Shown here: positions 6,093 through 37,291 of the stretch, one piece after another
How the letters are laid out: each line of letters begins with the position of its first letter
How positions within the stretch are numbered: position 1 is the stretch's first letter
Virus record (IMG/VR): IMGVR_UViG_3300021254_000020
Span: 96,001 to 160,000 of that record
Direction: 5' to 3' (one strand)
DNA length: 64,000 nucleotides
Source of the DNA: a virus
Taxonomy: Duplodnaviria > Caudoviricetes
Position numbers and translations under genes: made by a program
Notes under the pieces: model-generated
Databases searched by the model: none
What the model saw: the letters and a program-made list of their open reading frames with translations, nothing else
Told to the model about the DNA's origin: nothing

Positions 6093-7220
6093 TTAACCAG
6101 CCTTATTCTGCAGATAGCCCATCAGCTTATCGATAACTGAGAGAATCTTAGCTGCTACTCTCTTAAGTTTTGCAGCTATACCAGAATCTTGAGATGCTTG
6201 AGCTTTCTTCATAAACTTAGCATAGATGCTGCGTAAAGAAGCAATCTTCTTACCAATCACAGACTTAGGCTTATTTTGATAACTCTTGTATGCAGCCAAT
6301 GCAGCACCAGCTCCAGCCAATCCAATAGCTCCTGCAGCCAGCTTTCCTTTATTCTCTGAAGCAAAGTCTTTTACTTTTTCAAAAGTACCCTTTTCAGGAG
6401 CTGCTTTTGCAGGTTCAACCTTAGCAGGAAGATTGTTTACTTCCCCTTTGCTATCAGGTTTGCTGGTAGGAGCATTATCTGGTTCATCTTTAATCTGCAT
6501 TTGGGGAGCAGCTTGAGACTGTGTTTCTTTTTCTTCATTAGCCTTCTTTTCTGCTTCTTCCCTCTTAGACTGATTCAGTTTCATTTTATAGAGACGATCA
6601 GTAGCTGCATCAATATTCTTCAGCTTCTTCTCTTTCTTAGCATTTGCTGCTTGGATCTCATTATGAGCATCTGCTGCACTCTTATCACCAAAATAGAATG
6701 ACTTGTTAGCTGCGTATCTTTCATCAGCATTCTTTTGTTCTGCTTTCTCTATATGGCGCTTACGCATCTCTACCATTTTCTTCATCTGATCTGCGGTTAC
6801 CTCTTCAGATAGGCACAGATCAACGAACTCTTCTTCACTGATATCTTCATTGAAGAAATCAATGCAAGCTTCTTCCATAATGGAGTAGATTAGAGAGTCT
6901 TCATTTACAGGACGGATGAGAAGATTAGAGAAATTGATATCATTACCATATACTTCCGATTCATCCATTACTATACTCATTGAAGACGAATCAATGTTAT
7001 TAGCATTAGCTAACTCAGATACTATCTGCATTACCGGAGTATTGGTCTGCTCTGATAGATTATTAAGATAATAGTAATCTACCAAATAGTTACCATCTTC
7101 TTTTGCTACAACTGGAATCTCATTACAGTTAATACTAGCTTCTTCTTGAGTTAGATAAACTGCCTCATCTAGTTTATCAAAGATACTAGGTTTATACAGC
7201 TGTGATTCTTTGATTAACAT
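6093..7220 (-). CDS. MLIKES-family paralog (probable virion internal/ejection protein)
   Basis: N-term MLIKESQL..LDEAVYLTQEEA; C-term KPKSVIGKKIASLR...IDKLMGYLQNKAG. Confidence 0.8.
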   Translation of the reverse strand: MLIKESQLYKPSIFDKLDEAVYLTQEEASINCNEIPVVAKEDGNYLVDYYYLNNLSEQTNTPVMQIVSELANANNIDSSSMSIVMDESEVYGNDINFSNLLIRPVNEDSLIYSIMEEACIDFFNEDISEEEFVDLCLSEEVTADQMKKMVEMRKRHIEKAEQKNADERYAANKSFYFGDKSAADAHNEIQAANAKKEKKLKNIDAATDRLYKMKLNQSKREEAEKKANEEKETQSQAAPQMQIKDEPDNAPTSKPDSKGEVNNLPAKVEPAKAAPEKGTFEKVKDFASENKGKLAAGAIGLAGAGAALAAYKSYQNKPKSVIGKKIASLRSIYAKFMKKAQASQDSGIAAKLKRVAAKILSVIDKLMGYLQNKAG

Positions 7221-7235
7221 TTATATCACCTACCA

Positions 7236-7880
7236 TTACTTACGGGCAAACTCTCTACTAAAGTTACTACTAGCCTTTTGAGCAAACTTGAGAAGTTTAT
7301 CAATAGCTTCAGTAACCTTAGTGGCTACTTTTTGAAGAACATTCTTTTCTTTAGGAAGAATACCTCCACCATTGATTTTCTTTTTGAGTTTTGCTAATAC
7401 TTTTCTAAGAGAGGCAATCTTCTTTGCGATTACACCTACCGGTTTGTTTTCATAATCGTATATCTTCTTTAACCCAGTAGCTGCAGTAAGAGCTGCTGCG
7501 GCAGGCATAGACCATTTCATTACTTTTTCTGTAGTAGGATGAGCCCAGAATGCCATTGCTGCCAGTTTCTTTTTCTGAGGTTGATGCACTCCAATAGCTC
7601 TAGCACGACTCTCCATATCTCCAGGCATATCCATTATGAATTTTCTTACTTTAAACGGATTACTAGATATATTTTTAGCATCGTCTTTGATCTGTGAATA
7701 TTGATCCATTCCAAGGCTCATATTGCCCTTATGCTTATATAGAATATCCATATCGTCGTCATCTTTATCTTCACAGAACGAGATAAGATAAGATTCATCC
7801 AACGTCTCTATATATTTACCAACAGCTTCTTCGCACAGCTGATAAATAGGATCGTTTTCATTTACAGTAGTTAATAGCAT
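7236..7880 (-). CDS. MLIKES-family paralog with shortened N-domain (start MLLTTVNE)
   Basis: C-term KPVGVIAKKIASLR...IDKLL; AGGAGG SD before 7880. Confidence 0.75.
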   Translation of the reverse strand: MLLTTVNENDPIYQLCEEAVGKYIETLDESYLISFCEDKDDDDMDILYKHKGNMSLGMDQYSQIKDDAKNISSNPFKVRKFIMDMPGDMESRARAIGVHQPQKKKLAAMAFWAHPTTEKVMKWSMPAAAALTAATGLKKIYDYENKPVGVIAKKIASLRKVLAKLKKKINGGGILPKEKNVLQKVATKVTEAIDKLLKFAQKASSNFSREFARK

Positions 7881-7894
7881 CTCTATTCCTCCTT

Positions 7895-8797
7895 TCAAGA
7901 AGAGAATGAATTAGCAGTAGTCTGCATAGCTCTCATCAGTTTATCTATTACTTGCAAGATCTTAGCCCCTACTTTCTTTAGAGTAGCTACTGCTTTAGAA
8001 TCCTTTTTCAATATACCAGGTTTCTTCTCCAGTTTATCCTTAATTCCAGAATACATCTTCCTCAGTTTAGCTATTACTTTAGCAACTACGTTTTTCGGTT
8101 TGTTCTTATAGTTGTCGTATACTTGCTCAATCTTATCTGCAGCTTTGGATCCTATTTTTAATCCTACGCCTGTAGTAAACATTAGTCTCGATGTATTAGC
8201 ACTATCCAAATAATCTGCACTCTTGTTTATTGCTTCCGGATCTTTAAACATACCGAGTTTAGCCCCATATTTTTTACCACCCAGTTTATCCAATTTTTCC
8301 TTATATTTGTTGGCTGTATATGCGTCTTTTACTGAGTTAGCAATACTACCAGCTATGAGTGCATTACCTAATGAGTTAGCAACTCCCTCTAAGAGCGACT
8401 CATCATCCTGTTCTATGGCTTCATTTACCACAGTCTCTACCCATACTCCTACAGGGTCCTTATCAGATATTGGAGATATAACTACTTGATACATCTCATC
8501 TACTACTTCTGGATAGAGAATAGCCATATCTTCTTTGAGATCTACTGCCAACAAGCAAGACGGAACATCGTTAGCTTCAGCAATCTTTTCGATGGCTTCA
8601 TTAAGAGAACATTCGTATTGGTTACTAATTGCTAATACGTCTTCAAACATGACTGTATTGCAATCAATGCTACTATTCTCTCTAACAGTAATTTCTGTAG
8701 GGTATATAGTGCTCTCTTCTTGAGTTAGATAAACAGCCTCATTCAATTTTTCTAAGATATTATTCTTAGATTGAAATTGTTCTTCTTTTATCAGCAT
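7895..8797 (-). CDS. MLIKES-family paralog
   Basis: MLIKEEQ..LNEAVYLTQEES; C-term KPKNVVAKVIAKLRKMY...IDKLM. Confidence 0.8.
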   Translation of the reverse strand: MLIKEEQFQSKNNILEKLNEAVYLTQEESTIYPTEITVRENSSIDCNTVMFEDVLAISNQYECSLNEAIEKIAEANDVPSCLLAVDLKEDMAILYPEVVDEMYQVVISPISDKDPVGVWVETVVNEAIEQDDESLLEGVANSLGNALIAGSIANSVKDAYTANKYKEKLDKLGGKKYGAKLGMFKDPEAINKSADYLDSANTSRLMFTTGVGLKIGSKAADKIEQVYDNYKNKPKNVVAKVIAKLRKMYSGIKDKLEKKPGILKKDSKAVATLKKVGAKILQVIDKLMRAMQTTANSFSS

Positions 8798-8810
8798 TTA
8801 TATCACTCCC

Positions 8811-9812
8811 TTAACCACCCAGTTTATTCTGAGCATAATTCATCAGTTTGTTTATAGCCCCCGGTGCTTCAGCTGATGCATACTGCCTCAATTGGTCAAT
8901 AAAGAAGTCTGCGTCAACACCTTTACTCTGAGCTTTATTGCTCAGCCAAGCTGCGAATCTATTTATACCATCTTTGGCTTGATCTGTACCAAAGCCAGCA
9001 GCAGCTTGGGCATATTTATTAGTAGGAGTAGCAGGATTTGCCTTTCCATTCCCGAAGTTATTACCCCACCAGTTCTTAATACTTGACCACATACGGGAAA
9101 GCCATCCCTGTTGTTGTTGAGTCGGAGGAGCACTTTTTGGAGGTGTCGTATTTCCCTGTTGTTGATTACCAGTAGCTCCTTCCTTTTGCTTTTTCAGTTC
9201 CATAAATTTCTGAACTGTAGGATTGTTTTCAGCTGCGGTACCAGTCATTAATTTCTTTTGAGGTTGAGTAGGCTGTGGAGTATTATTAGCCGCTTTTTGT
9301 TGTTTCAAAGCCTGCATCTTGGCCAACTCAGTATTATATTCTGGGTCTGTCATGTCAGCTGCAGCACCAGCATTGCCTTCCAGTATACTCATGGCAAACT
9401 CTTCATTAAAACAGGCTTCTTCTAATATATCTAGCCAGATCTGGTTTTCTCCAGAACTAATGTAATTCTCAAGAATATGATCACATATTCTATATGGGGC
9501 ACTATTAGTACTTTCTTTAAATAGAACCACATCAGAAAACTGAGTAAGAATCTCAGGATTGCATAAGGGTCGCCATTCCTCAATAGCTACTACCAATCCT
9601 TTTCTAGGAATACAGTTTTCTTTGATAGTCATGTCTAGTGCTTCGTCTATTGAGATACAATTATCCTCAGATAAAGACAAAAGATCTTTATAATAAACCA
9701 TGTTTCTATGATCTTTGGTCTCTTGAACCGGAACCATACATCCGCATAATCTATCATCAATCATTTCCATATTCTCTAAAAGATATAATGGAGATCTTTC
9801 TTTCTCTTGCAT
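8811..9812 (-). CDS. Divergent MLIKES-family member: family N-domain, Gln/Pro-rich linker, different amphipathic C-terminus
   Basis: VPVQE..MVYYKDLLSLSED..LVVAIEE matches the family N-domain; GWLSRMWSSIKNWW amphipathic helix; GGAGG SD before 9812. Confidence 0.65.
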   Translation of the reverse strand: MQEKERSPLYLLENMEMIDDRLCGCMVPVQETKDHRNMVYYKDLLSLSEDNCISIDEALDMTIKENCIPRKGLVVAIEEWRPLCNPEILTQFSDVVLFKESTNSAPYRICDHILENYISSGENQIWLDILEEACFNEEFAMSILEGNAGAAADMTDPEYNTELAKMQALKQQKAANNTPQPTQPQKKLMTGTAAENNPTVQKFMELKKQKEGATGNQQQGNTTPPKSAPPTQQQQGWLSRMWSSIKNWWGNNFGNGKANPATPTNKYAQAAAGFGTDQAKDGINRFAAWLSNKAQSKGVDADFFIDQLRQYASAEAPGAINKLMNYAQNKLGG

Positions 9813-9826
9813 ATTATTCGCCTCCG

Positions 9827-10786
9827 TCATCCAGCATTCTTTTGTAATATGGCCAACAGTTTATCAATAACTGTAAGTATCTTATGAGCGGCATTCTTAA
9901 TAAGACTAGAGTTAGTTTTATCAGAGGTTTTCTCAGCAGCGCTCATCCATTTGGTGTAGATCTTTCTAAGAGAAGCAATCTTTTTACCAATCCATGATTT
10001 TGGTCTGTCTTTGGCCATTTGGACTAGCTTCTGAACTCCTTTGTATCCACCATATGCTGCTAACGCAGTACCACCTAGTTTGAGCTCACCTTTTGCATAA
10101 TTTTTTAATGCATCCTTTTCATGACCACGAAGAATATCAGCATTCATTTTTCTTTCGTCATTTATACTGTTTATTTCATCTTGTGCCATCTTTTTAGCAG
10201 CATCAGTAGCATTCTCATCTCTGAGTAAACGATTATTAGAATTAATAGTTCTATTAGTTGATCTAATATAGTCCGCATTATGCTTTGCTCTAGCTACAGC
10301 ATATCTAGCAGATTGTCCTGCCTTAGCGAAGTCACCAAGATAGAAGTCTTTAATCTTATCTACGAACTCATTTAGATAAGTATCTTCAACAATAGCATCT
10401 AGGTATTTATCATCGCTACTAGTAGACCATTTATCAATACACTCAGAAACATATTGATACTCCAAGCTAGACTCTTTGATAGGAGCTACTACTGAGCACT
10501 CAAATAACATCAATGGATTAATAATCACATCTTCTTCTTTTACTACATTAAGCATCTTACCCATATCAATGTCATTAGCTTTTGCTATATCCTGAAAAAG
10601 ACATTCGACTCCACTTTCAGACAATCTCTCTAAGTAATAGTTATCTACTAAGTAAGAGCCATTATTCTCAACTACTGGGACTTCTTCTACTTTTATCTCA
10701 GCCTCTTCCTGTGTTAAATAAACTGCTTGATCTAGTTGCTCTAATATATTAAATTGAGGCTGTAGATGTTCTTCCTTTATTAGCAT
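9827..10786 (-). CDS. MLIKES-family paralog
   Basis: MLIKEEHL..; C-term RPKSWIGKKIASLRKIY...IDKLL. Confidence 0.8.
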   Translation of the reverse strand: MLIKEEHLQPQFNILEQLDQAVYLTQEEAEIKVEEVPVVENNGSYLVDNYYLERLSESGVECLFQDIAKANDIDMGKMLNVVKEEDVIINPLMLFECSVVAPIKESSLEYQYVSECIDKWSTSSDDKYLDAIVEDTYLNEFVDKIKDFYLGDFAKAGQSARYAVARAKHNADYIRSTNRTINSNNRLLRDENATDAAKKMAQDEINSINDERKMNADILRGHEKDALKNYAKGELKLGGTALAAYGGYKGVQKLVQMAKDRPKSWIGKKIASLRKIYTKWMSAAEKTSDKTNSSLIKNAAHKILTVIDKLLAILQKNAG

Positions 10787-10804
10787 TCTTATCACATCCT
10801 TCAA

Positions 10805-10837
10805 AAATAAATAGGGAGGGAAACTAATCCCTCCCTT
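10805..10837 (-). terminator. Terminator-like hairpin, near-identical to 13161-13187
   Basis: AGGGAGGG-loop-CCCTCCCT followed by ATTTATTTTT on minus strand. Confidence 0.65.
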
Positions 10838-10884
10838 ATATCTATGTGTGAATTTGAATGAATGAAGAAACTTATGTAATGTGA

Positions 10885-11835
10885 TTAACCGGCTTTCTTT
10901 TGGAGGAATTCCATCAGCTTATCAATAACTGATAGAATCTTGGCAGCGACTTTCTTGAGCTTTGCTGCAATACCATTATCTTTTGCAGACTGGGCTTTCT
11001 TCATGAACTTAGCGTATACCTTTCTTAGAGCAGCAATACGCTTGCCTATCACTGACTTAGGTTTATCCTTATACTGCTTATATGCATATATACCTGCACC
11101 TACAAGAGCTGTTCCTGCTACTGCAGTAGCGATTTTCTTATTTCTTTTCTCATTATGAATTCGACGAATATTTTGCAAACGATTCCAAGCTACGTCAGTT
11201 CTATCGAATCCATCACCAAGCCTTTTATGAGCCTCATTATCTCTTTTTGTTCTCTCACTAGCAGCATCTGCCATTTTCTTATAGTACTCTTTATCATTCC
11301 TATCTATGTTTTTAATATCGTTATAATATTTGTCATAGGATGACAATAACTCTTTGTTTTTACGAGTCTCTAGTTTGTCTAAGTGTCTGTTGACCATAGC
11401 AAGATCTTTTGAATTATCTACCATAATAGCCTCGGTGAATACATCTTCATCTATCTCATCATTGAGATAAGCTTCAGAAACGAAATCGCACCAGAATACT
11501 TCATCGCTATCCTCACTAAGAGGTCTGACTACCATATGTTCTGGATCGAATGATTCTTGCATAGCGATGGCATTTCCCTCATCTACTAATAGAGTGAGGT
11601 TATCAATACCATTAGATTCTTTTATGGCCTCAATGGATTCGAACAACGAATATCCGTTATCTTCTGACAATTTGACCACATATCCGTAGTCTACCATATT
11701 GTTTCCATTTTCTTTTACTACTACCGGAACCTCAGATAGATTTAAACTCGCCTCTTCCTGAGTAATATATACTGCTTCATTAAGCTGATTCAGTATATCA
11801 GTTTTCTGAATGAGTTGGGATTCTTTGATTAACAT
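10885..11835 (-). CDS. MLIKES-family paralog
   Basis: Conserved N- and C-domains; TAVAGTALVGAGIYAY hydrophobic segment. Confidence 0.8.
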   Translation of the reverse strand: MLIKESQLIQKTDILNQLNEAVYITQEEASLNLSEVPVVVKENGNNMVDYGYVVKLSEDNGYSLFESIEAIKESNGIDNLTLLVDEGNAIAMQESFDPEHMVVRPLSEDSDEVFWCDFVSEAYLNDEIDEDVFTEAIMVDNSKDLAMVNRHLDKLETRKNKELLSSYDKYYNDIKNIDRNDKEYYKKMADAASERTKRDNEAHKRLGDGFDRTDVAWNRLQNIRRIHNEKRNKKIATAVAGTALVGAGIYAYKQYKDKPKSVIGKRIAALRKVYAKFMKKAQSAKDNGIAAKLKKVAAKILSVIDKLMEFLQKKAG

Positions 11836-11860
11836 AATATCACCTCAATAAATAAATATA

Positions 11861-11890
11861 AAGGGGGATGAACTTAATCACCCCCCCCCC
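11861..11890 (-). terminator. Hairpin whose 5' arm is a G10 homopolymer
   Basis: Plus strand AAGGGGGATGAACTTAATCA followed by C10; homologous element at 15034-15064. Confidence 0.55.
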
Positions 11891-11911
11891 ACGTCTATTT
11901 ATCTCTATTTA

Positions 11912-13132
11912 TCAACCTGCTTTATTTTGCAGATAACCAAGCAGTTTATCAATAACCTTGAGCACATGTGCAGCAACCTTCTTTAGTTTAGCTGCAATAC
12001 CATTATCTTTTGCGGATTGAGCTCTCTTCATGAATTTAGCATAGATCTGACGAAGAGCAGCAATGCGCTTACCGATTACCGACTTAGGTTGGTTCTTATA
12101 CTTCTTATAAGCATACCAAGCACCACCAGCCAAAGCAGCACCACCAACAGCAGCTGCACCATATTTGAGATACTTACCTTTATCAGATCCCGAACTACCA
12201 CCACCAAGCAAGCTGTTAGATGGGCGAGCAATCAATGCTCCGCCATTACCAGATGACGTAGATGGTGAACTTACTGTAGCAGAGACATTGCTTTTCTTCT
12301 CATCAGGAATATCAGCATTGTTTGTTCCATTTGCCGTGTTATTAACTGTATTGCCATTACTATCCGGCTTAGAGATATTTGCTGCTCGTGAGAGTAATCT
12401 CTCATCATCATCTGCGGCTCTATCTTCTTCTGATTTGCGCTCTTTAGCAATCTGACGAAGGCTATCTAATTTATTTTCCGCAGTTTTGCTATTGTCAAAT
12501 AATCGATTACTCCTATTATCAAATGCTTTCCTATGATTAGCCCTTAATTCACCGAATTTTGGTTCGTATTCATCTATTACATCTTTTACTTTTCCGTTTT
12601 TAAACGCTTTGTCTCTATCATCTAAGAGTTTATCCCATTTTTTGTTATATACGTCCCTCTCTCTGTCAAAGTGCTTATCTACTAAGTCTGCATAGTCTTC
12701 AGCTTCGGCAAAAGACATCATCATCTCATAGAATGACTCTTCATTTAGTTCTTCGTTATAGAAGCTTTCACAGATAGCCATTGCTCTAGTATATTCATAG
12801 CTATTCTCAGATACTGGACGAACTACCATTAGTTCTGGATTGAACTGTTCTCCAATAGTAATAGCATCTCCTTCATCAATAGAGATATTGAGAGAGTCTA
12901 ATCCATTAGACTGACTGATCGTAGATAATGCTTCGAACAGACCAATTCCATTCTGTTCAGAAATGCTATTAATATATTCATAGTCTACCAAGTTAGTTCC
13001 ATTTTCTTTTACCACTACTGGAACCTCTGAAGCATGAATCTGAGATTCTTCTTGAGTCAGATATACTGCTTCATTGAGCTGACTCAATATATCATTAGTA
13101 TTCTTAATCAGCTCTGATTCTTTAATAAGCAT
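11912..13132 (-). CDS. MLIKES-family paralog
   Basis: Conserved N- and C-domains; YGAAAVGGAALAGGAWYAY hydrophobic segment. Confidence 0.8.
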   Translation of the reverse strand: MLIKESELIKNTNDILSQLNEAVYLTQEESQIHASEVPVVVKENGTNLVDYEYINSISEQNGIGLFEALSTISQSNGLDSLNISIDEGDAITIGEQFNPELMVVRPVSENSYEYTRAMAICESFYNEELNEESFYEMMMSFAEAEDYADLVDKHFDRERDVYNKKWDKLLDDRDKAFKNGKVKDVIDEYEPKFGELRANHRKAFDNRSNRLFDNSKTAENKLDSLRQIAKERKSEEDRAADDDERLLSRAANISKPDSNGNTVNNTANGTNNADIPDEKKSNVSATVSSPSTSSGNGGALIARPSNSLLGGGSSGSDKGKYLKYGAAAVGGAALAGGAWYAYKKYKNQPKSVIGKRIAALRQIYAKFMKRAQSAKDNGIAAKLKKVAAHVLKVIDKLLGYLQNKAG

Positions 13133-13205
13133 ATTCATTCATTCCTTTCGTTAAATATTATAAGGGAGGGAAACTAACCCCTCCCTTATATCTATGTGTG
13201 AATAT

Positions 13206-14144
13206 TTACTTACTAAGATCATTTGCAGCCTTCTGCATTTTAAACATAAGCTTATCTATTGTGGTAAGAATCTTACCAGCAAACTTCTTAAGCTTATTTT
13301 TGATACCTTTATCTCCAGCACTATTCATCTTGTCCATAATCTTAGAATACATCTTACGAAGTTTTGCGATAGCTTTAGCTATTACATTACGAGGCCTATT
13401 TTTATACTTCAGATAAAGGCTGTCCAGGGTTGCTGCTGTTTGTCCAACAGCGGCAGATTTGAGTCCTTTGGCCCCAAAACTAAGACCAGCAACTCCCCAG
13501 TTACGATATCTATCAGCCTTTTTCTGCTCATCTGGTGATAACGGTACAACATCTGAATTATCGGTAGCTTGTTTATATTTATGACCAGCATATCCAGCTA
13601 ATGCAGCCCCAGCTCCAGCTTTCATCAAGCCTAATCTTCTTGTATGTTTACCGAATGCCTGAATGTACCCATGTAAGCCACTATCAGCATCATAATCTTT
13701 TAGCTCAGTTAATGAGATCAGATTGGATTCCATTAGTTCTACATCATCTTTTTCGTAGGCATCTTCTACAATAGATTCTACTAGAATGCCGATAGGATCA
13801 TTGCTACTCATTTCAGATACTACTATATTATTCAATCCATATACGATATCAGGATCTTCTACAATAGTATCTTCGCTTACTGCTACAACTAGTTTATCTA
13901 GTTCTACATCATTAGCTTCAGCAATAATACTCATTGCCTCTGCATAAGAGATACCATATTCTTCTGATAGAAGATCAACATCTTCGAATCTAACCATAGC
14001 AACCCCTTCACCAAGACGGCTCATTTCACGAACCGGAATGGTTACAGGATGAACTTTGGATTCTTCTTCGCTGATATAAATAGCTTCGTCTAGTATTTTC
14101 AAACCACTCAGGCTGTTCTTTAATTCACTTTCCTTTATAAGCAT
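13206..14144 (-). CDS. MLIKES-family paralog (start revised to MLIKESEL)
   Basis: AAAGGATG SD before 14144; C-term RPRNVIAKAIAKLRKMY...IDKLM. Confidence 0.8.
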   Translation of the reverse strand: MLIKESELKNSLSGLKILDEAIYISEEESKVHPVTIPVREMSRLGEGVAMVRFEDVDLLSEEYGISYAEAMSIIAEANDVELDKLVVAVSEDTIVEDPDIVYGLNNIVVSEMSSNDPIGILVESIVEDAYEKDDVELMESNLISLTELKDYDADSGLHGYIQAFGKHTRRLGLMKAGAGAALAGYAGHKYKQATDNSDVVPLSPDEQKKADRYRNWGVAGLSFGAKGLKSAAVGQTAATLDSLYLKYKNRPRNVIAKAIAKLRKMYSKIMDKMNSAGDKGIKNKLKKFAGKILTTIDKLMFKMQKAANDLSK

Positions 14145-14231
14145 TGATATCATCCTTTCAAAAAAAGAGGTGGGGAGGGGACGATTCCCCTCCCCATTTA
14201 TGTATGTGAATGAATGAATGAAACCCATGAA

Positions 14232-15008: not shown

Positions 15009-15085
15009 TTATATCACCTCGTAACAAATATATTGGAGGAGGATGAACCTAATCACCCCCCCCCATGTCTATTTGAATGTAGTTA

Positions 15086-15961: not shown

Positions 15962-15990
15962 GATTAGTTCCTCCATTCATTCATTATTTA

Positions 15991-16788
15991 TTAAGCAAAC
16001 TTGGATTGAATCGTCTTACTAGCCTTCTTCAGCTGTTTAGATAGGAATTCAATAGCCTGTTTGATCTTAGCAATAACTTTATTGAATACCTTTTTATAGG
16101 CAGGTTCGCCTTTGATACGACTAGACAGCTTGTCAGCCAAGCTACGAAAAGCACTGATCTTCTTAGAGATCCAGTTAGCAGATTTGCTACCAGCCTGCTT
16201 CATTACATTAGCAATCCGGTTACCAATCTCTTCTGCTTTCTTACCAGCTTTGCCAGCTTTTTCTTTTACGACTTTAGTGACTTCAGCTTCGTTAAAGAAA
16301 GTATCGAAGTCATCATTTACGAATGCTTCCAACAGTGCATCCGTACCTGCCGTATCCCCAGCAGATTCTCCCATGATCATATAATCAGTCACGGTTTCTG
16401 CCATAATGCTAGCCATGTCGTTCTCGCTAACCGGAACTGCATATACAGTAGCACCTGCTTCAATGAGACCACGAACAGTGTCCTCCATATTCACATCTTC
16501 TAGTACATGAACCTCATCTACTGAGAAGACTACAGAGCTCGGCTGGATATCACTAGCTTCACAGATCTGTCTCAGAGCGTAGCCACCATCACTAATACCA
16601 TTAGCCATAGAGTATTCCAGAAGATCTTCCAGACGTACTACATTCTTACCTAGACGAGCATTCTCCCGTACCGGAACCAGTTCAGGATAATAACGGGATT
16701 CAGACTCACTCAGATAGCTACTATTTTCCAGCAATTGCAGAGCTTCATCAATTGCGTTAGATTTCATTTGTTCTGCTTTGATCAGCAT
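15991..16788 (-). CDS. MLIKES-family paralog
   Basis: MLIKAEQ; VPVRENARLG; C-term WISKKISAFR...KIKQAIEFL. Confidence 0.75.
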   Translation of the reverse strand: MLIKAEQMKSNAIDEALQLLENSSYLSESESRYYPELVPVRENARLGKNVVRLEDLLEYSMANGISDGGYALRQICEASDIQPSSVVFSVDEVHVLEDVNMEDTVRGLIEAGATVYAVPVSENDMASIMAETVTDYMIMGESAGDTAGTDALLEAFVNDDFDTFFNEAEVTKVVKEKAGKAGKKAEEIGNRIANVMKQAGSKSANWISKKISAFRSLADKLSSRIKGEPAYKKVFNKVIAKIKQAIEFLSKQLKKASKTIQSKFA

Positions 16789-16831
16789 GACCTACTCCTC
16801 CTTCTTTAAAGCATTAACAGCACTTAGCCAT

Positions 16832-16843
16832 TATTTAGATGTA
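16832..16843 (-). promoter_or_regulatory. Late-type promoter motif TACA-N6-TA
   Basis: Minus strand TACATCTAAATA upstream of 16788. Confidence 0.45.
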
Positions 16844-16847
16844 TCTC

Positions 16848-17513
16848 TTAACCCTCATCAGCTACCGGTTTTACTTTGAATACATCGGCATTAGAATCAT
16901 GCTTGTTAATACCATTGTGGACGGTCTTAGGATCTGGGTCACCACCTGCAGTCTTAGCTGCAAGAATAGAAGGAACATTAACTTTGCTGGTTTCAGGATC
17001 TTCACCATCACCTACAAAGTTACTATCACTCTTTTGGAACTGGTTTACCGGAATCTTGTGCAGCAAACCATCTGCTTTTGCTACTCCAGTGGATACACCC
17101 TGACCACAATTGCAGTTGTCTTTACCACAAGCACATTCCTCACCCAGCTTGAAGATGGATTTATCAATTGCATCTTCTTTTACTGCTTTCTTTTTATCTT
17201 TCTCACCATTGCATTCAGGGCAGCTTTTAGATCCGCAGTTGCATGCTTCATTCAATTTAAAGAAAGGCATCTTTGCTTCCTCCTTTATGTTTTCTTCTTC
17301 ATTAGAATTGTTATTTCCGCGACTTAATTTTTGACGATAGCTTTCCGGTATTTCACCATTCTTTATGAAGTCTCTAGCTACCCTATCCATATTGGATTTA
17401 GGTCCTTGGTCTTCATGCCTCTTATCGTACAGTAAACTGGCTATGGTGAACTTACCGTTAGTAGCGCGGTCAATAACGTCCTCCGATAAAGAGAATAAGT
17501 TTGGGTGTCTCAT
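16848..17513 (-). CDS. Hypothetical protein with two Cys-rich repeats
   Basis: FKLNEACNCGSKSCPEC and FKLGEECACGKDNCNCG. Confidence 0.7.
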   Translation of the reverse strand: MRHPNLFSLSEDVIDRATNGKFTIASLLYDKRHEDQGPKSNMDRVARDFIKNGEIPESYRQKLSRGNNNSNEEENIKEEAKMPFFKLNEACNCGSKSCPECNGEKDKKKAVKEDAIDKSIFKLGEECACGKDNCNCGQGVSTGVAKADGLLHKIPVNQFQKSDSNFVGDGEDPETSKVNVPSILAAKTAGGDPDPKTVHNGINKHDSNADVFKVKPVADEG

Positions 17514-17524
17514 ATTATACTACC

Positions 17525-17830
17525 TCATTTCTTAATTAAAGAACCAGTAGTATTGGTAGGACTATTCGGGATTTGTCTTTTTATAAGAGAAGTTTGCATC
17601 TGTTTCTGACCAGCACTAGTGGGATTACCAGCAAACCCTTTAGCTCCTACAGCCTTAGCAAAGTTGTTAACTTTGGTCTGTGCTCTATTAGCTGCATTGG
17701 TTACTGATCTACCAGCATCTCGTACTCTATTAACGATTCCGCTTACAGCACTAGATGCATTTCCTAGATTGGTCTGAACACGATTCTTCACATCATCAAG
17801 AAATCCCTCTTGAAAGGTAACGTATCTCAT
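17525..17830 (-). CDS. Small basic protein with acidic leader (MRYVTFQEGFLDD), probable virion protein
   Basis: GAGGG SD before 17830; xxEGF motif shared with 19688-19894. Confidence 0.6.
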   Translation of the reverse strand: MRYVTFQEGFLDDVKNRVQTNLGNASSAVSGIVNRVRDAGRSVTNAANRAQTKVNNFAKAVGAKGFAGNPTSAGQKQMQTSLIKRQIPNSPTNTTGSLIKK

Positions 17831-17843
17831 GATGGTACCCTCA

Positions 17844-18689
17844 TTACATGTAATCGTATTTACCGGCAATGATATCTTTGATACGCTGTACACCAGCCTG
17901 ATAAGGATCGAGATTAGCAGATTCTTCTACTGCTTCATCTTCGTCTTCTTCCTCATCATCATCGTCATCCTTTTCTTTGGACTTCTTGGATTTCTTCTCA
18001 TCTTTATCGTCGTCCTTATCTTCGCATTCCTTGCATTTCTTATCTTTCTTTTCGGGTTCTTCTTCATGGATTACATCCTGATCTGCACCCTTCTTCAGCT
18101 CTACATCTTCTTCAGATGCTTGCTTTGCTGCTTCCAGGAACCCTTCCTGCTTGTAGTTCTTCTTTACAAGAGGTAGGCCATATCGACCAGTGATAAGATC
18201 CAAGAGTTGTTTGGTGTTAGCTACACGACGAATCTTAGCGAAATCTTTCTGATCATTACCGAAAATAGGTTTACCCAAACCAGGTTCAGGATTAGCAACA
18301 CTACCATCAGTATTATGACCTAAGTCTTCCATCTCATCTAAGATTGATGCTTCGTCTACTACTATAGCAACGTCATAGAAACGATCAGCAACATCGTTAG
18401 CTTCTAGTATATTACTAATAGCCGTCTTTACATTGACGACACCATTAGTCAACATATAACGACTGAGATCTTCCATCTCAATCAAAAGACGACCCAATCG
18501 GTCGCTCTGACGAACAACAACCATGTCAGGACTAAAACGCATTTCCTGCTCGTTAAGAGAAGGCATATTCGTCAGCATCTGAGCTACATCTTCCAAGAGA
18601 GTACGATCAGCTGTCTCTGGTAGAGTAAGACCAGACTCATTAATAGCCATTTCGGAAAGGGTCTGTATAGCTGATTTAAACAGTGACAT
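17844..18689 (-). CDS. MLIKES-family N-domain with a highly charged low-complexity tail; scaffold-like
   Basis: VVVRQSDRLGRLLIEMEDL..AIVVDEASI matches the family; K/D/E-rich tail. Confidence 0.65.
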   Translation of the reverse strand: MSLFKSAIQTLSEMAINESGLTLPETADRTLLEDVAQMLTNMPSLNEQEMRFSPDMVVVRQSDRLGRLLIEMEDLSRYMLTNGVVNVKTAISNILEANDVADRFYDVAIVVDEASILDEMEDLGHNTDGSVANPEPGLGKPIFGNDQKDFAKIRRVANTKQLLDLITGRYGLPLVKKNYKQEGFLEAAKQASEEDVELKKGADQDVIHEEEPEKKDKKCKECEDKDDDKDEKKSKKSKEKDDDDDEEEDEDEAVEESANLDPYQAGVQRIKDIIAGKYDYM

Positions 18690-18691
18690 TA

Positions 18692-19603
18692 TTACCCCTC
18701 CTTAGAGAATTTGCTCTTGATTTTGTCAATACCACTAGTAATACCATTCTTCACTTTAGAAGCCTGGTTGCTAACAGCATCTGCAGCTTTGCCACCCATC
18801 TCCTTAGCACTCTTAGCAGCACCAGAGATCTTCTTACCAGCACTATCCTTCAAATCGAACAGTTTGGATTTTAGTGATTTAGCCATAGCTTTCAGCTTAT
18901 CCATTTGACGAACAATCAGAGCTTTTGCACTAGCCGGAGCTTTCTTGGCTTCAGCCGCCTTAGCAGCAAGTGCCTTACGAACACTAGCCAGTTTCTTTGA
19001 TACTACAGATACAGCTCCTGACACTTTGTTTTTGGCCACACCATATGCGCCAGATACTTTATCCTTAGCATAGTCATAACCAGAGGATACCTTTCCTTTA
19101 GCGGTATTAAATCCACTAGAGAGTTTATCCTTAGCATCAGTGATGATGGACTCGTTCAAATAGTTCAAGCAATTTACACTCTCATCAAGAGTAGCATATT
19201 CCTGATCCATTTCAAGAGCTTCCATCAAAGAGCTGTAATACAAACTATCACTAGAAATACGAGCAACGTGACAGGGAAATCCAGCTTCGGCCAATTGAGT
19301 AAATGTATCAGCCAATTCATCATCAGCAATGATATTTTCTTCATTAGCTACAAAGCCCAAGTTATCCCGAGGAACACTATTAGCCTCACATACTCTATGG
19401 ATAGCAAGTCCAGCATCTTCGATGCCATAACACTGAGCAAAACCTAAGAATGATTCCAGCTGAATGAGATCTTGACCAAGACGAGAATTATGGCGTACAT
19501 TTACCATACTCGGGTCAAAAGCACTCTCACTCAGACTAAGATGGTCTATGCTGTCGAGGAGAGCAGTTGCTTCTCCCAACAGCTGATTCTGCTTAATCAG
19601 CAT
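18692..19603 (-). CDS. MLIKES-family paralog with 11-mer amphipathic repeats
   Basis: MLIKQNQL; AKDKLSSGFNT/AKGKVSSGYDY/AKDKVSGAYGV/AKNKVSGAVSV. Confidence 0.75.
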   Translation of the reverse strand: MLIKQNQLLGEATALLDSIDHLSLSESAFDPSMVNVRHNSRLGQDLIQLESFLGFAQCYGIEDAGLAIHRVCEANSVPRDNLGFVANEENIIADDELADTFTQLAEAGFPCHVARISSDSLYYSSLMEALEMDQEYATLDESVNCLNYLNESIITDAKDKLSSGFNTAKGKVSSGYDYAKDKVSGAYGVAKNKVSGAVSVVSKKLASVRKALAAKAAEAKKAPASAKALIVRQMDKLKAMAKSLKSKLFDLKDSAGKKISGAAKSAKEMGGKAADAVSNQASKVKNGITSGIDKIKSKFSKEG

Positions 19604-19655
19604 TTTTCATAACTCCTTCCATTATGGTATTAGCTGAACACAGTAGTTCAGCCAT

Positions 19656-19667
19656 TATAGGTTTGTC
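19656..19667 (-). promoter_or_regulatory. Late-type promoter motif GACA-N6-TA
   Basis: Minus strand GACAAACCTATA. Confidence 0.5.
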
Positions 19668-19687
19668 AAGTAAGTTAATTAATTCCA

Positions 19688-19894
19688 TTAAGATCTAGAT
19701 TGATTTATTGCCCTTTGCCGTTCATCAACTAGTTTAGCGATATGGGGAGGAACGTCCTTCTCATTCACTTCCGTAGTTGTTTTGTATATATTCATTTTCG
19801 GCTTACCAAGAAGCTTGTTAGTGGAATTAGTAACAGTAGATTTCAGTTTATCCATGAATCCCTCATTGAGATTTTGTGGTTTAAAGAACGGCAT
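19688..19894 (-). CDS. Small protein MPFFKPQNLNEGFMDK, probable virion protein
   Basis: GGTGG SD; LNEG leader motif. Confidence 0.6.
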   Translation of the reverse strand: MPFFKPQNLNEGFMDKLKSTVTNSTNKLLGKPKMNIYKTTTEVNEKDVPPHIAKLVDERQRAINQSRS

Positions 19895-19899
19895 ATCAT

Positions 19900-20466
19900 T
19901 CACCACCATTTACTATTATTGGCTACATAATCTACATTCTTATTCATCAACCAAATATAATCTCTCTTGGCTTGAGAAGAACCAGCCTCTCTATCATTCC
20001 AAGCGTCGACTACAGTATCTCTCAGGTCTTTGAATTTCTTCACTAACCAAGCAATGGCTTGTTTAATAGTATAAATAACAGTGGCAATGAATCCACCCTC
20101 TTCAGCCCTAGCTCTTGCCCTCCTACTTTCCATCTCCTCTAATTTATCTCTTAGAGCACGGAATAATACTTTAGCAGATCTAGGTTCTTTAACGAGTTTC
20201 CCAGCAGTATATTTGGTGATACCTAATGCAGCACCAATAGCAGTAATTCCCTCATCATCAGCAGATTCATTCAAGTTATTTAATGGGAACGTGGTGTTCT
20301 TAATATCATTAGCAATAATTTGGATATCATCTAGAGTACCACATTCTCCAAGAATAAACTCAGCCATCTTATATTGGAAAATACCACTTTCTACATATGC
20401 TTCTAAATTATTGGAAAACTCATTAGCCATTTCATTTTCTTGAGGGGTATTATCATTAATCAGCAT
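19900..20466 (-). CDS. Divergent MLIKES-family member
   Basis: LNES followed by GITAIGAALGI; C-domain GFIATVIYTIKQAIAWL. Confidence 0.6.
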   Translation of the reverse strand: MLINDNTPQENEMANEFSNNLEAYVESGIFQYKMAEFILGECGTLDDIQIIANDIKNTTFPLNNLNESADDEGITAIGAALGITKYTAGKLVKEPRSAKVLFRALRDKLEEMESRRARARAEEGGFIATVIYTIKQAIAWLVKKFKDLRDTVVDAWNDREAGSSQAKRDYIWLMNKNVDYVANNSKWW

Positions 20467-20479
20467 GATTATCCCTCCA

Positions 20480-21406
20480 TTATTTCTTGATACCTCTTAT
20501 CTTATTCATGATGGCATCTTTAAGTCTAATAAGCGCATCTATTCCCTTTTGAACTAAGCTTTTCTTATTCTGATCATATTCACCACTGGCCAGCTTTCTG
20601 CTAAAGAAGCTAATCTTCTGAGTAACCTGATCAAACATATCTCTTAGTTTATCTGCAACAGCTCCAGCTCCACCATTAGCCATATCACCAACAGTACTAG
20701 CAAGAGATCTCTTCATACCATTAACAAAGTCACCAACTGCTTCCAAACCCTCACCACTAACACCATGTGCTTGAGCAATGTTTTGAATAGCTTGAGTAGG
20801 AGCAAAGCTATCCAGTCTACGTCTAGCAGCACCTTCACCAGCAGATTTTACACCACTGCTTACTGCATTTTTAGCAGCATTGAGTCCTACAGATACTGCA
20901 CCCATAGCAGTATCTTTTGCACCTTGACTGATTCCTCTTTTAACCCCTGAGAAAAAGTCTCCAAGACCTTCATTAACAATAGCATCAATGGCTTCGCTAT
21001 TATCAGTTTCTACAGCTTCTTGTAGCTTATCTCCAAATGCTTTTGCAAGAGGATTTTGGTTTACTCTAGCGTATACTTCCTTACCCTCTTTAATGAGAGA
21101 TTTGTATAAATTATTAGCTTCTTCATTCATACAGATAGTGCTAGGACGAATGGAGTAGCAAATATCTGATTCACAAATTCTATTCATCTCAGATACTTTC
21201 TCAATCAATTCGTTAAAACCAATATTATTCTCATGACAGAATCGATATCCTTCTTCTACACTGATCATATACTGATCACAATTAGGTCTCTCATAAATCT
21301 TAAATAAGCTAAGTTGTTCAGTTTCAGAATCTGCCTCTTCATCAATAGGAAGATAGCTCATCTCTTCTAGAACAGACTTAGTATTCTCTCTAGTATTAAA
21401 TAGCAT
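20480..21406 (-). CDS. Divergent MLIKES-family member
   Basis: Acidic N-domain ending IVNEG; Gly/Ala-rich basic C-half. Confidence 0.6.
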   Translation of the reverse strand: MLFNTRENTKSVLEEMSYLPIDEEADSETEQLSLFKIYERPNCDQYMISVEEGYRFCHENNIGFNELIEKVSEMNRICESDICYSIRPSTICMNEEANNLYKSLIKEGKEVYARVNQNPLAKAFGDKLQEAVETDNSEAIDAIVNEGLGDFFSGVKRGISQGAKDTAMGAVSVGLNAAKNAVSSGVKSAGEGAARRRLDSFAPTQAIQNIAQAHGVSGEGLEAVGDFVNGMKRSLASTVGDMANGGAGAVADKLRDMFDQVTQKISFFSRKLASGEYDQNKKSLVQKGIDALIRLKDAIMNKIRGIKK

Positions 21407-21429
21407 ATTGATTCAACCTCCTTTATAAT

Positions 21430-21441
21430 TACTCTCATGTC
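21430..21441 (-). promoter_or_regulatory. Late-type promoter motif GACA-N6-TA
   Basis: Minus strand GACATGAGAGTA. Confidence 0.5.
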
Positions 21442-21446
21442 TTCCA

Positions 21447-22238
21447 TCATCTATTTAGCATACTATGTAATTTATCAGTCAACTTTCTTATAGCAGCCTT
21501 TATCTTCCATAGTATCTTACCAATTATTCCCTTATTCTCCCAGTGCTCTCTTTCAGCCCGTTCATACTTTGATTCATACTCTGCTTTTTTGCCAGCTAGT
21601 ACTCTTAGCTTCTTAATTAACTCTGATCTCTGCCATCTTGGTTTTCTAGCATCATTATCAGCAACATGATCAGCTATCTTTTTCCCTACATAAAGAGTTC
21701 CTAATAGAGCAGCACCTTGCTTAGCTGTTCTTTTTAGATTATCCTTTGCTTCTCTTTTTGCTTGGTTAATCTGTTTAGGAACCTCACTTCTAATAGCACT
21801 GGTTATTCCATGAACAAAACCATTCTTCAAATCTTCTATATCACTTTCGTTTATGAATTGATCAAAGAGAGTAAAGTCTTGGTATTGCTCATAAAATGAT
21901 ATAGCATCCTCTATAAGTTTAGTATGATGCTTAGTATTTAGTGGACGTATAGACACCTTGGTGTTCTTAATATACTTCTTTTTATTTCTTAGATAATGAG
22001 GATTATTTATTAGCCTAACCTCATCAACTATAACTCCTAGTTTAGATGGATCTACATGATAATGGCTATATATTAGGCCCTCTTTACCAGACTCTACTAA
22101 AGAGATATAATCATCTAAAAAAATATAGACGGTACCATCAAGGGATTCTATTAATCTAGCTTCTTCGATAGTCATATCTCTATATTGTATTCTGGGAAGA
22201 GAATCTAATACGCTGGGCTGATCTACAAACTTAATCAT
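21447..22238 (-). CDS. Divergent MLIKES-family member
   Basis: LGVIVDEV; FINES; GAALLGTLYVG; GIIGKILWKIKAAIRKL. Confidence 0.6.
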   Translation of the reverse strand: MIKFVDQPSVLDSLPRIQYRDMTIEEARLIESLDGTVYIFLDDYISLVESGKEGLIYSHYHVDPSKLGVIVDEVRLINNPHYLRNKKKYIKNTKVSIRPLNTKHHTKLIEDAISFYEQYQDFTLFDQFINESDIEDLKNGFVHGITSAIRSEVPKQINQAKREAKDNLKRTAKQGAALLGTLYVGKKIADHVADNDARKPRWQRSELIKKLRVLAGKKAEYESKYERAEREHWENKGIIGKILWKIKAAIRKLTDKLHSMLNR

Positions 22239-23170
22239 TTTACCAACCCCACTTTACGCCCTAGGGCTTGTATAGCCCATTTAATCTTAGCAATAATCTT
22301 AGAGATTATGCCCTGCTGCTGAGGAGGAGCTGTCTGCGCTTTACCAGTAAGAATATTTAGCATCTTATTCAGACTATTAATCATTCTAGTAGCTACTCCT
22401 GGATTAGCATTATTTATATTATCCTGACTAGTGAGACTATTAAACATAGCACCCATACCACCAAGTACTGCTACTACTCCAGCACCAAATTTAGCTCCTC
22501 GAACATATGGTTTCAATTTATCTTTAGTGGTACCAGCAGCTTTGTCTATAGTGTTACCAACTACCTTATTAGCTGTATCAGACATGTTGCTGATAAACTT
22601 CTTTTTTCTTTCAGGATCGCTTAGATAATCTTGAGCACCTTTCATCAAACCACTAGTTAGTTTAGAACCTATATAGCCCAAAACATCATTCTTGGCTTGA
22701 TTATAACTATCCTTAGCATCGTTTCCTAGTTTATTCAATCCCTGAAGTTGGCTACTAGTCCAAGATAATACACCCTCAGTCAACATCTCAGTCATATAGG
22801 TATCTTCAGCAGCTAGATCCATTTCTACTACATCTTCTAATACCTTATCCAATTGGAAATCAGTACCAGCATCAACATACTGCATCTTGATATTATTTAT
22901 AGACTCTAATACAGCATCTCTATATTCTGTATTCTCATAAAACATAGCTTGATGAACTACAGCTATACACTCATTCACTTTATGCTCTTTAGCAATATCC
23001 TTCATAGCTTTAGTAAGAGTAATCTCTTTTCTATTAGCCGTCTCAATAATAGAGGAAAAGTTAACAATACATTCTTCTCTATTCTTTGGTCTAGCTATAA
23101 TCATACTCTCATTAGTGATTCTAGGTAATACCAATGGGATTGGTTTCGTTTGTGACCGTGATATTAACAT
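22235..23170 (-). CDS. Divergent MLIKES-family member
   Basis: MLTEG junction; FGAGVVAVLGGMGAMF; GIISKIIAKIKWAIQAL. Confidence 0.6.
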   Translation of the reverse strand: MLISRSQTKPIPLVLPRITNESMIIARPKNREECIVNFSSIIETANRKEITLTKAMKDIAKEHKVNECIAVVHQAMFYENTEYRDAVLESINNIKMQYVDAGTDFQLDKVLEDVVEMDLAAEDTYMTEMLTEGVLSWTSSQLQGLNKLGNDAKDSYNQAKNDVLGYIGSKLTSGLMKGAQDYLSDPERKKKFISNMSDTANKVVGNTIDKAAGTTKDKLKPYVRGAKFGAGVVAVLGGMGAMFNSLTSQDNINNANPGVATRMINSLNKMLNILTGKAQTAPPQQQGIISKIIAKIKWAIQALGRKVGLVK

Positions 23171-23933: not shown

Positions 23934-23966
23934 TTTAACTCACCCCTTTCAATTAGGTGTCGTAAT

Positions 23967-23978
23967 TACCTAAATGTT
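23967..23978 (-). promoter_or_regulatory. Late-type promoter motif AACA-N6-TA at the head of the virion-protein array
   Basis: Minus strand AACATTTAGGTA, exact match to the AR9 late consensus. Confidence 0.6.
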
Positions 23979-24047
23979 GCGCATGGGGCATTTTAGGCAA
24001 AAAAGAAGGGCCCACTAGGGGCCAAGTAGATGTGAGGATATGTGCTG

Positions 24048-37195: not shown

Positions 37196-37291
37196 TAGAA
37201 TTCCTCCTTACAAAAAAGATTGGATACGATTATGACTATGTATTCCTTATAAAAAAGAAAAGAGAGGAGAATAACTCCTCTCAAATCTTAT

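Follow-up and report, generated by a model that had tools for sequence, protein, structure and literature searches.

The window analysed here is a 64,000-nucleotide stretch of DNA from an uncultured jumbo phage, bases 96001-160000 of a 266,420-bp IMG/VR virus record (IMGVR_UViG_3300021254_000020) that is rated complete. Open reading frame (ORF) listing and translation place a gap-poor run of minus-strand ORFs at 6093-23176, where nearly all bases are coding, and it is this array and the protein family it encodes that we describe. A preliminary description of the window counted about 17 paralogs at 6093-23170, and domain profiles arrive at the same number. An N-domain profile was seeded with eight clear copies and run iteratively against every ORF of the 266-kb genome. 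It identifies a domain of ~145 amino acids in 15 ORFs, at E 1e-54 to 2e-08; a 16th match, 22235-23176, is marginal (E 0.04), and no credible one falls outside the array. An iterated profile of the C-terminal ~60 amino acids finds 13 ORFs, all within the array, including 19900-20466, 21447-22238, and 22235-23176. The union of the two sets is 17 paralogous members, numbered here from the left.

Domain architecture of the array proteins

The proteins join an acidic N-domain to a basic C-terminal domain through a region of variable length. Over the first 150 residues the net charge is -16 to -25 in 13 copies; in the four at 7236, 19900, 21447, and 22235 it is -5 to -7. Only the last N-domain helices are kept in two copies (7236 and 19900). 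The last 75 residues carry +12 to +16 in 10 core copies. Among 183 metagenomic relatives the N-domain averages -24 and the remainder of the protein +15, the remainder being positive in 176.

Nowhere is the family more conserved than at its extreme N-terminus, ML(I/F)(K/T)E. At its other end the N-domain closes on a hydrophobic-x-Glu motif in all 17 copies, and the variants listed in the preliminary description (LNEF, LDEG, VNEG, INES, LTEG, and FIEA) are all confirmed in the translations. Across 196 family members, hydrophobic-hydrophobic-x-Glu occurs in 60% of the boundary windows versus 29% of equal-size windows inside the Glu-rich N-domain. Of 117 such motifs, 61 are followed by Ala or Gly, and a propeptide ending there would have a median length of 144 amino acids.

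What lies between the two domains had been taken for hypervariable cargo. It is 33 to 183 amino acids long, rich in K, A, G, D, N, and S, and of low complexity, with ~20% hydrophobic residues and a low AlphaFold2 predicted local distance difference test (pLDDT) score. No Pfam domain was found in the middles of 149 family members or in longer forms; no fused form above 448 amino acids is among the candidates listed, and none has a Pfam domain, which is weak evidence. Because the region is low-complexity, charged, modelled with low confidence, and devoid of Pfam domains, we read it as a spacer rather than as cargo.

The C-domain consists of two long amphipathic helices, with an 18-residue hydrophobic moment of 0.47-0.71 and a mean hydrophobicity near 0. 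The basic hairpin is present in the 13 ORFs that match the C-domain profile, and the copy at 17844 has no basic C-domain. Judging by sequence, the amphipathic, cationic hairpin could bind a membrane surface, or DNA. Relatives also encode the basic C-hairpin without an N-domain (15808-16437 in contig L004, 2683-3390 and 15740-16357 in L005, and 113-1786 in L033), in some cases outside the array, so that the hairpin is an independent module.

Structure and homology of the N-domain

The AlphaFold2 model of full-length member 9 has a folded alpha/beta N-domain, a disordered linker at residues 144-196, and a C-terminal helical hairpin at 198-257. Modelled alone from 149 sequences, the N-domain is a small alpha/beta domain with a pLDDT of 88 and a predicted template modelling score of 0.71. 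In the best structural alignments of the full-length model, residues 112-258 are covered as one helical bundle, so the hairpin may well pack against the final helices of the N-domain.

Does the fold resemble anything known? Foldseek searches of the PDB with the full-length and N-domain models gave no match at E <= 0.001, the best N-domain E-value being 0.12, and VIA-align found no convincing solved structure for the N-domain alone (best Z 3.9). With the full-length model, VIA-align returned mainly generic helical hairpins at Z up to 9.1, below a meaningful level for helical bundles. A likeness of the hairpin to ESCRT-III (Snf7) and PspA was considered and rejected, its Z of 7.7-7.8 being in the range that any helical hairpin gives. 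Foldseek against BFVD recovered nothing beyond three paralogs, all uncharacterised, of 'Myoviridae sp. ctIty1', and the ESM Atlas only unnamed viral clusters with scores below 0.8. Profile searches of PDB sequences with the full-length and N-domain alignments yielded nothing usable, 50,697 phage records contained no DNA or protein BLAST match to the whole array or to individual members, and PHROG and Pfam scans of 10 members yielded weak compositional matches only (tape measure, apolipoprotein, perilipin). The N-domain profile likewise has no match in phiKZ, AR9, or Staphylococcus phage S6. PF12699, the Pfam family of phiKZ internal head proteins (cut-off 27 bits), matches none of 10 array proteins at E <= 0.01 and nothing in the 266-kb genome at E <= 10.

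Could such a domain act outside the virion? One alternative holds that the array encodes late non-virion proteins, in which the N-domain works as a DNA mimic or as a module that binds RNA polymerase (RNAP) or defence proteins, the hairpin tethers it to nucleic acid or membrane, and an arms race drives diversification. A net charge of about -24 in 145 amino acids is typical of DNA-mimic proteins, and the N-domain is folded, conserved, and without a known fold match. Residues ~52-93 moreover resemble PF16805, the T4 gp33 late-transcription coactivator, at 14-22 bits against a cut-off of 25; the match recurs in 13 of 149 members, at 17-22 bits and always at profile positions 11-47 of 73. However, these scores lie under the cut-off, cover half of the profile, and have no structural match, and what is shared may be merely a helix-turn-helix-like hairpin. 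It is also the linker that varies and not the N-domain, the opposite of target-driven diversification, and the conserved boundary motif and N-terminus are left unexplained. We therefore regard a purely non-virion role as distinctly unlikely. The array copies with the PF16805 match include those at 13206-14144, 14232-15008, and 15086-15976.

Size and history of the family

The domain-profile search that the preliminary description envisaged, run exhaustively with the N-domain, returned 623 cluster representatives (50% identity) at E <= 0.001. In the BLAST and profile searches described above, no cultured phage proved to carry the family. The best 150 of the 623 matches are proteins of 145-547 amino acids with the domain at the N-terminus. 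No Pfam or PHROG family was found for the array or its relatives when 10 members, 149 family members, and the longer forms were scanned.

Four N-domain genes each are found in two related phages with complete, terminally repeated genomes of 251 and 290 kb and in two fragments, in one cluster downstream of a phrog_12252 gene and in a gene order that matches the window. A maximum-likelihood tree sets three single-copy types (represented by 17844, 18692, and 15991) apart from a fourth, the 'MLIKES' type, which is single-copy in the basal relatives and has nine copies in the array-bearing phage. For several of the nine, metagenomic contig L013 contains a well-supported 1:1 ortholog, and the expansion is therefore old and its copies individually maintained rather than decaying. 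Other contigs contain arrays of 5 to 8 or more copies, and over the related phages as a whole tandem arrays range from 4 to 8 or more. Members 9 and 10 share a 263-nucleotide block that is 88% identical (14668-14930 on the member 9 side), which shows that gene conversion between them is ongoing.

Membrane affinity and the identity of the phage

The preliminary description reported that the middle region usually contains a Gly/Ala-rich hydrophobic stretch. The stretch exists and is confined to some copies, in which the best 19-residue Kyte-Doolittle mean is 1.2-1.5 (maximum 1.51), most copies lying at 0.7-1.4. With a mean of >= 1.6 taken to indicate a single-pass transmembrane segment, every copy in the window falls short, and only 20 of 183 family members reach that value. 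The mature part is accordingly not expected to span a membrane, contrary to the insertion proposed in the preliminary description.

This bears on a second alternative, in which the ejected cationic parts insert in the host membrane, build or remodel an early-infection vesicle, and display polymorphic effector middles. Several observations lend it some appeal: the strong amphipathicity of the C-domain helices, the Gly/Ala-rich stretches and the 20 family members at or above the transmembrane threshold, the sub-threshold apolipoprotein and perilipin matches of member 13, and the precedent of SPN3US gp47, a propeptide-bearing ejection protein whose mature part starts with a transmembrane segment (PMC5694885). 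Against it stand the low hydrophobicity of the window copies and the low-complexity middles; with no folded or recognisable domain in them, polymorphic effector display is unlikely. The Snf7 and PspA hairpin matches stay within the range of any helical hairpin.

The identity of the phage is a further argument. By RNAP beta-subunit similarity (~31% identity), its closest cultured relatives are the Bacillus phages AR9 and PBS1 together with Staphylococcus jumbo phages, and the phiKZ-type phages are more distant. The array-bearing phage is AR9-like and not detectably phiKZ-like. A query of the 266-kb genome with phiKZ gp054, the chimallin, gave no match at E <= 1, a weak negative as it rests on one sequence. 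Since the phage is AR9-like and has neither a chimallin nor a PF12699 match, we find no basis for the phiKZ-type early-infection vesicle that had been proposed, and consider the vesicle and effector scheme as a whole very unlikely.

Late-type promoter motifs and the prohead protease

The array was said to lie downstream of late-type promoter motifs, a remark supported by analogy with AR9. Three RACA-N6-TAAT sites are found on the minus strand: GACAAACCTATAAT at 19654-19667, 64 nucleotides upstream of member 13; GACATGAGAGTAAT at 21428-21441, 35 nucleotides upstream of member 15; and AACATTTAGGTAAT at 23965-23978, 45 nucleotides before the leader gene of the module, where it closely follows a terminator-like hairpin at 24009-24023. 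The first recurs, with the same motif and distance, at the ortholog of member 13 in L007, and an equivalent of the third precedes the leader gene in L005 and L006. Over the whole genome the motif is not over-represented (37 sites versus ~51 expected from composition). Its placement is another matter: 22 of the 37 sites lie 25-70 nucleotides upstream of a same-strand start, versus 1.0 expected (p 2e-25). Among 10 other genes scanned behind the motif, five match PHROG 'virion structural protein', one tail sheath, and two RNAP beta-like subunits; by another tally, seven of the 10 fall in these classes.

AR9 reads its late genes from AACA-N6-TA/G and its early genes from AAATATATATTAT-N6-G (PMC5312081). 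RACA-N6-TAAT shares the layout of the former, and a second motif in our genome, TATA[CT]TAT-N6-G, that of the latter; this early-type motif has 70 sites, mostly before small genes, and none of the 70 is in the array. The two classes are seen over genome positions 2893-264999, for example upstream of 25404 in the window. By analogy, the array would thus consist of AR9-type late genes served by three promoter-like sites. A scan for sigma-70-type promoters showed no enrichment (62 found versus 64.7 in shuffles). Elsewhere in the genome, outside the window, a late-type promoter (GACATAGCTATAAT) stands 39 nucleotides upstream of a single ORF of 5,640 amino acids (G000:222326-239248), whose product is presumably a giant virion protein.

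RACA-N6-TAAT also heads an operon that encodes a prohead protease, at 37138-38019 of the genome. The enzyme is a Peptidase_S77 of the T4 gp21 type (PF03420 at genome 37483-37959, 51.7 bits versus a cut-off of 27) and matches the PHROG head maturation protease at E 2e-22. Just upstream of it, in the same operon, is the gene for a Lys/Glu-rich protein of 246 amino acids.

Late expression would suit a third alternative as well, that of core- or scaffold-like assembly proteins, whose acidic N-domains and basic hairpins form an internal core in the assembling head or dock to it, and which are degraded or expelled at prohead maturation and never delivered to the host. The authors of the SPN3US work raise the possibility that long propeptides serve as core or scaffold (PMC5694885). 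Opposite charges at the two ends of the array proteins would favour self-assembly, and the Asp/Glu/Lys-rich tail of member 12, the best-conserved type, faintly matches (E 0.004) the scaffold-like part of the phrog_2229 head maturation protease. Still, 17 diverged and individually maintained paralogs are many for a scaffold, the Lys/Glu-rich gene beside the protease is a more conventional candidate for that role, and no coiled-coil scaffold homology was found. We consider a scaffold function unlikely.

Two families of GC-rich hairpins with T-rich tails lie between the genes. Type A, which belongs to repeat family D9, occurs between paralogs at 10803-10853, 13153-13203, and 14161-14211 on the minus strand, and type B at 11860-11889 and 15034-15065. 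Terminator-like sites number 21, versus 9.3 +/- 3.1 in shuffles. Both hairpin families were copied together with the paralogs during amplification, and they may act as terminators, 5' stabilisers, or processing sites. On its 5' side, type A is flanked by a conserved sequence, ATTCACACATAGATATAA, with a loose resemblance to the late promoter.

Genes of the array

All genes of the module are on the minus strand. Five ORFs extend beyond the conserved N-terminus (9827-10804, 11912-13138, 13206-14228, 15086-15976, and 22235-23176), and their true starts are most likely the internal MLIKE or MLIS methionines at 10786, 13132, 14144, 15961, and 23170. For member 8 the start is placed at 14144 because a hairpin at 14171-14196 falls inside the longer ORF. 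E-values below refer to the N- and C-domain profiles, in that order where both are given.

Member 1 (6093-7220, 375 amino acids) has an N-domain, a 146-residue K/A/E-rich linker, a Gly/Ala hydrophobic stretch, and the basic C-hairpin (E 1e-44 and 8e-25; charges -24 and +13; best Kyte-Doolittle mean 1.38). Member 2 (7236-7898, 220 amino acids) comprises only the last N-domain helices, matching N-profile positions 104-143 alone (E 2e-08), and the C-hairpin (E 4e-17); its TTG start overlaps the upstream stop as TTGA. Member 3 (7895-8797, 300 amino acids; E 1e-50 and 7e-17) again has N-domain, linker, and C-hairpin. Member 4 (8811-9830, 339 amino acids) is divergent: its N-domain (E 5e-43 after iteration) lacks MLIKE, its 196-residue tail is Q/N/A/G-rich, and a remnant of the last C-helix is all that is left of the hairpin; it has a 1:1 ortholog in L013. 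Member 5 (9827-10786, 319 amino acids from an MLIKEE start; E 1e-45 and 5e-24) consists of N-domain, linker, and C-hairpin and also has an ortholog in L013 (support 100/100).

A hydrophobic stretch between linker and C-hairpin is present in member 6 (10885-11835, 316 amino acids; E 4e-46 and 2e-24), in member 7 (11912-13132, 406 amino acids from MLIKES, with a 175-residue D/K/S/N-rich linker; E 1e-45 and 1e-22), and in member 10 (15086-15961, 291 amino acids from MLIKES; E 1e-54 and 4e-23). Member 8 (13206-14144, 312 amino acids from MLIKES; E 2e-47 and 3e-24) has N-domain, linker, and C-hairpin, and member 9 (14232-15008, 258 amino acids; E 1e-54 and 8e-26), the modelled copy, is the shortest complete one.

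Member 11 (15991-16788, 265 amino acids; E 9e-43 and 3e-13) is of a conserved single-copy type, with an N-domain and a divergent C-hairpin, and has orthologs in L005, L006, L007, L019, and L022. Member 12 (17844-18689, 281 amino acids) joins a partial N-domain (E 2e-25) to an Asp/Glu/Lys-rich tail without the basic hairpin, the last 75 residues having a charge of -15. As the best-conserved type across relatives, it is 44-49% identical to its orthologs in L004-L007. Member 13 (18692-19603, 303 amino acids; N E 6e-41) ends in a repetitive amphipathic tail rich in Lys, Ala, Ser, and Gly. Over residues ~150-300 this tail gives sub-threshold matches to apolipoproteins A1, A4, and E, perilipin, and a tape-measure PHROG, the pattern expected from repeated amphipathic helices.

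The remaining members are less typical. Member 14 (19900-20466, 188 amino acids) is N-truncated with a C-terminal amphipathic helix (C E 1.5e-4) and has an ortholog in L004; member 15 (20480-21406, 308 amino acids) has a divergent N-domain (E 3e-34 after iteration) and a Gly/Ala/Ser-rich tail; member 16 (21447-22238, 263 amino acids; E 7e-16 and 9e-07) has a divergent, weakly acidic N-domain and a C-helix; and member 17 (22235-23170, 311 amino acids from MLIS; E 0.04 and 4e-10) has a marginal N-domain, a hydrophobic stretch (best Kyte-Doolittle mean 1.51), and a C-helix.

Two genes embedded in the array are not members of the family. The first (16848-17513) encodes a 221-residue Cys-rich protein with no N- or C-profile match, and its homologs occupy the same position in L005 and L007; its paired CxC and CxxC clusters make it a possible zinc binder. 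The second (17525-17893) encodes a small basic protein of net charge +11 that probably starts at an internal ATG at 17830. Both hold the same position within the module in related phages and are therefore probably part of the same functional unit as the array. The leader gene (23121-23933) belongs to phrog_12252, of unknown function (PHROG E 3e-37), and precedes the paralog module in all relatives. It has homologs in AR9, PBS1, and Staphylococcus jumbo phages, and the AR9 gene order around its homolog is uninformative.

A proposed capsid-internal, cleaved protein family

What, then, are these proteins for? The reading we favour, at a probability of about 0.5, is that the products of the array reside inside the capsid, are probably ejected, and bear a targeting pro-domain that can be cleaved off; they would be analogous and not homologous to the internal head paralogs of phiKZ and SPN3US. 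They would be made late, loaded into the prohead, and kept in the capsid with the DNA. The folded acidic domain of ~145 amino acids, with its near-invariant ML(I/F)(K/T)E, would be the capsid-targeting pro-domain and would offset the charge of the basic tail. The S77 prohead protease would cut after the Glu of the boundary hydrophobic-x-Glu motif and free a cationic mature protein in which a flexible linker leads to the Lys-rich amphipathic hairpin, in some copies by way of a Gly/Ala-rich segment. This would stay with the packaged DNA and probably be ejected with it. Of four ancestral gene types, one was amplified in this lineage to nine maintained paralogs.

The sequence itself shows the family, its architecture and charges, the promoter class, the protease gene, the boundary motif, and the history of expansion; from these and from better-studied phages we infer virion location, cleavage, and ejection. 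Proteases of the S77 family cut after Glu, at L/I-x-E in T4, S/A/G-x-E in phiKZ, and A-x-E in SPN3US (PMC5694885). The internal head and ejection proteins of the SPN3US gp53/gp54 and phiKZ gp93 type have conserved N-termini and propeptides of 124-137 amino acids that an S77-type protease removes after x-E (PMC5694885, PMC10052503, PMC7411985). The number of such paralogs differs between phages, from 2-7 for PF12699 and from 2-20 for SPN3US family B (PMC5694885, PMC10052503, PMC7411985). Computed from the phiKZ record, the first 130 residues of gp93 and gp95 have net charges of -22 and -23, comparable to the -17 to -25 of most array N-domains. The late-type promoter sites, the full-length model, and the maintenance of the tandem copies also speak for our reading. 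The preliminary description had likewise proposed head-internal paralogs with an acidic propeptide removed after Glu. The protease and the boundary motif lend this plausible, circumstantial support, whereas membership of the phiKZ family itself, PF12699, is not borne out.

Several points weigh against our reading. The neighbours of the array are DNA-metabolism genes (SbcC-like, ligase, RNAP, UvsX-like, and topoisomerase), the head module is ~65 kb away, and late genes include non-virion genes. In its model the N-domain appears folded, and it is conserved, beyond the need of a disposable tag, and the sub-threshold PF16805 similarity leaves room for a possible function of its own. Enrichment of the boundary motif is no more than two-fold, within a domain rich in Glu, and the motif could be a simple helix end. 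C-domain proteins without an N-domain occur in relatives, and the strong hairpin and T-run elements between copies would interrupt a simple operon. No homology to a virion-proven protein was found: the N-domain profile has no match in phiKZ, AR9, or S6, and PF12699 matches neither the array proteins nor the genome.

Comparison with known head protein families

The phiKZ_IP family (PF12699), which comprises phiKZ gp93-95, 162, and 163 and SPN3US gp53/gp54, is the closest parallel. In both cases paralogs stand in tandem and vary in copy number between related jumbo phages, the acidic pro-regions are long with conserved N-termini (124-137 amino acids there versus a predicted ~144 in the array), and an S77-type protease is present in the genome. 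However, there is no sequence relationship between them. The predicted mature parts of the array proteins are short, basic, and built mostly of a linker and one hairpin, whereas those of phiKZ gp93 and gp95 are larger and near-neutral, and the array belongs to an AR9-like phage.

T4 IPI, IPII, IPIII, and Alt are packaged in the head, ejected, encoded at variable loci, and relieved by gp21 of a conserved N-terminal capsid-targeting sequence after L/I-x-Glu (PMC5694885, PMC7411985). That sequence is 10-20 residues long, in contrast to the folded 145-residue domain of the array. The sequences are not similar, and the internal proteins of T4 number three, versus 17 array members. Family B of SPN3US, with 20 members (gp83, gp138-154, gp161, and gp237), is like the array large and mostly tandem; it consists of head proteins without an assigned function, in 2 to 20 copies between related jumbo phages (PMC5694885). 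Most of its members are not reported as protease substrates, and its architecture differs. The late genes of AR9 are read by a non-virion RNAP from AACA-N6-TA/G, and the three RACA-N6-TAAT sites of the array have the same layout, but AR9 has no detectable homolog of the family. We conclude that the array represents a new, sizeable, and unannotated family that plausibly works like the internal head paralogs of phiKZ-like phages and is unrelated to them.

Implications

The capsids of jumbo phages contain, besides DNA, tens of megadaltons of protein, most of it without an assigned role. To our knowledge, this protein has been catalogued only in phiKZ-like phages. If our reading is correct, the array would provide an unrelated second example, from the AR9-like branch, of which rumen and gut samples commonly contain members. 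It would also provide a defined tag with which large capsids could be loaded with proteins, in the form of a compact, confidently modelled pro-domain without a known fold match and with a clear predicted cleavage point. The small cationic proteins ejected would form a family with directly testable targets, be they DNA, membrane, or host defences. With 623 clusters absent from Pfam and PHROGs, naming the family would annotate many metagenomic phage genes, and the two promoter-like classes could serve to predict when each gene in this clade of phages is expressed.

A bolder proposal, which we regard as a long shot, is that the N-domain is a capsid-loading module of new fold and that the cationic hairpin proteins are ejected in bulk and target either the host envelope or the DNA as it enters, for example as a coating or as a protective early compartment. 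If bulk ejection of this kind does take place, it would be an independent solution to the problem of protecting the genome during entry, in a lineage that appears to lack chimallin.

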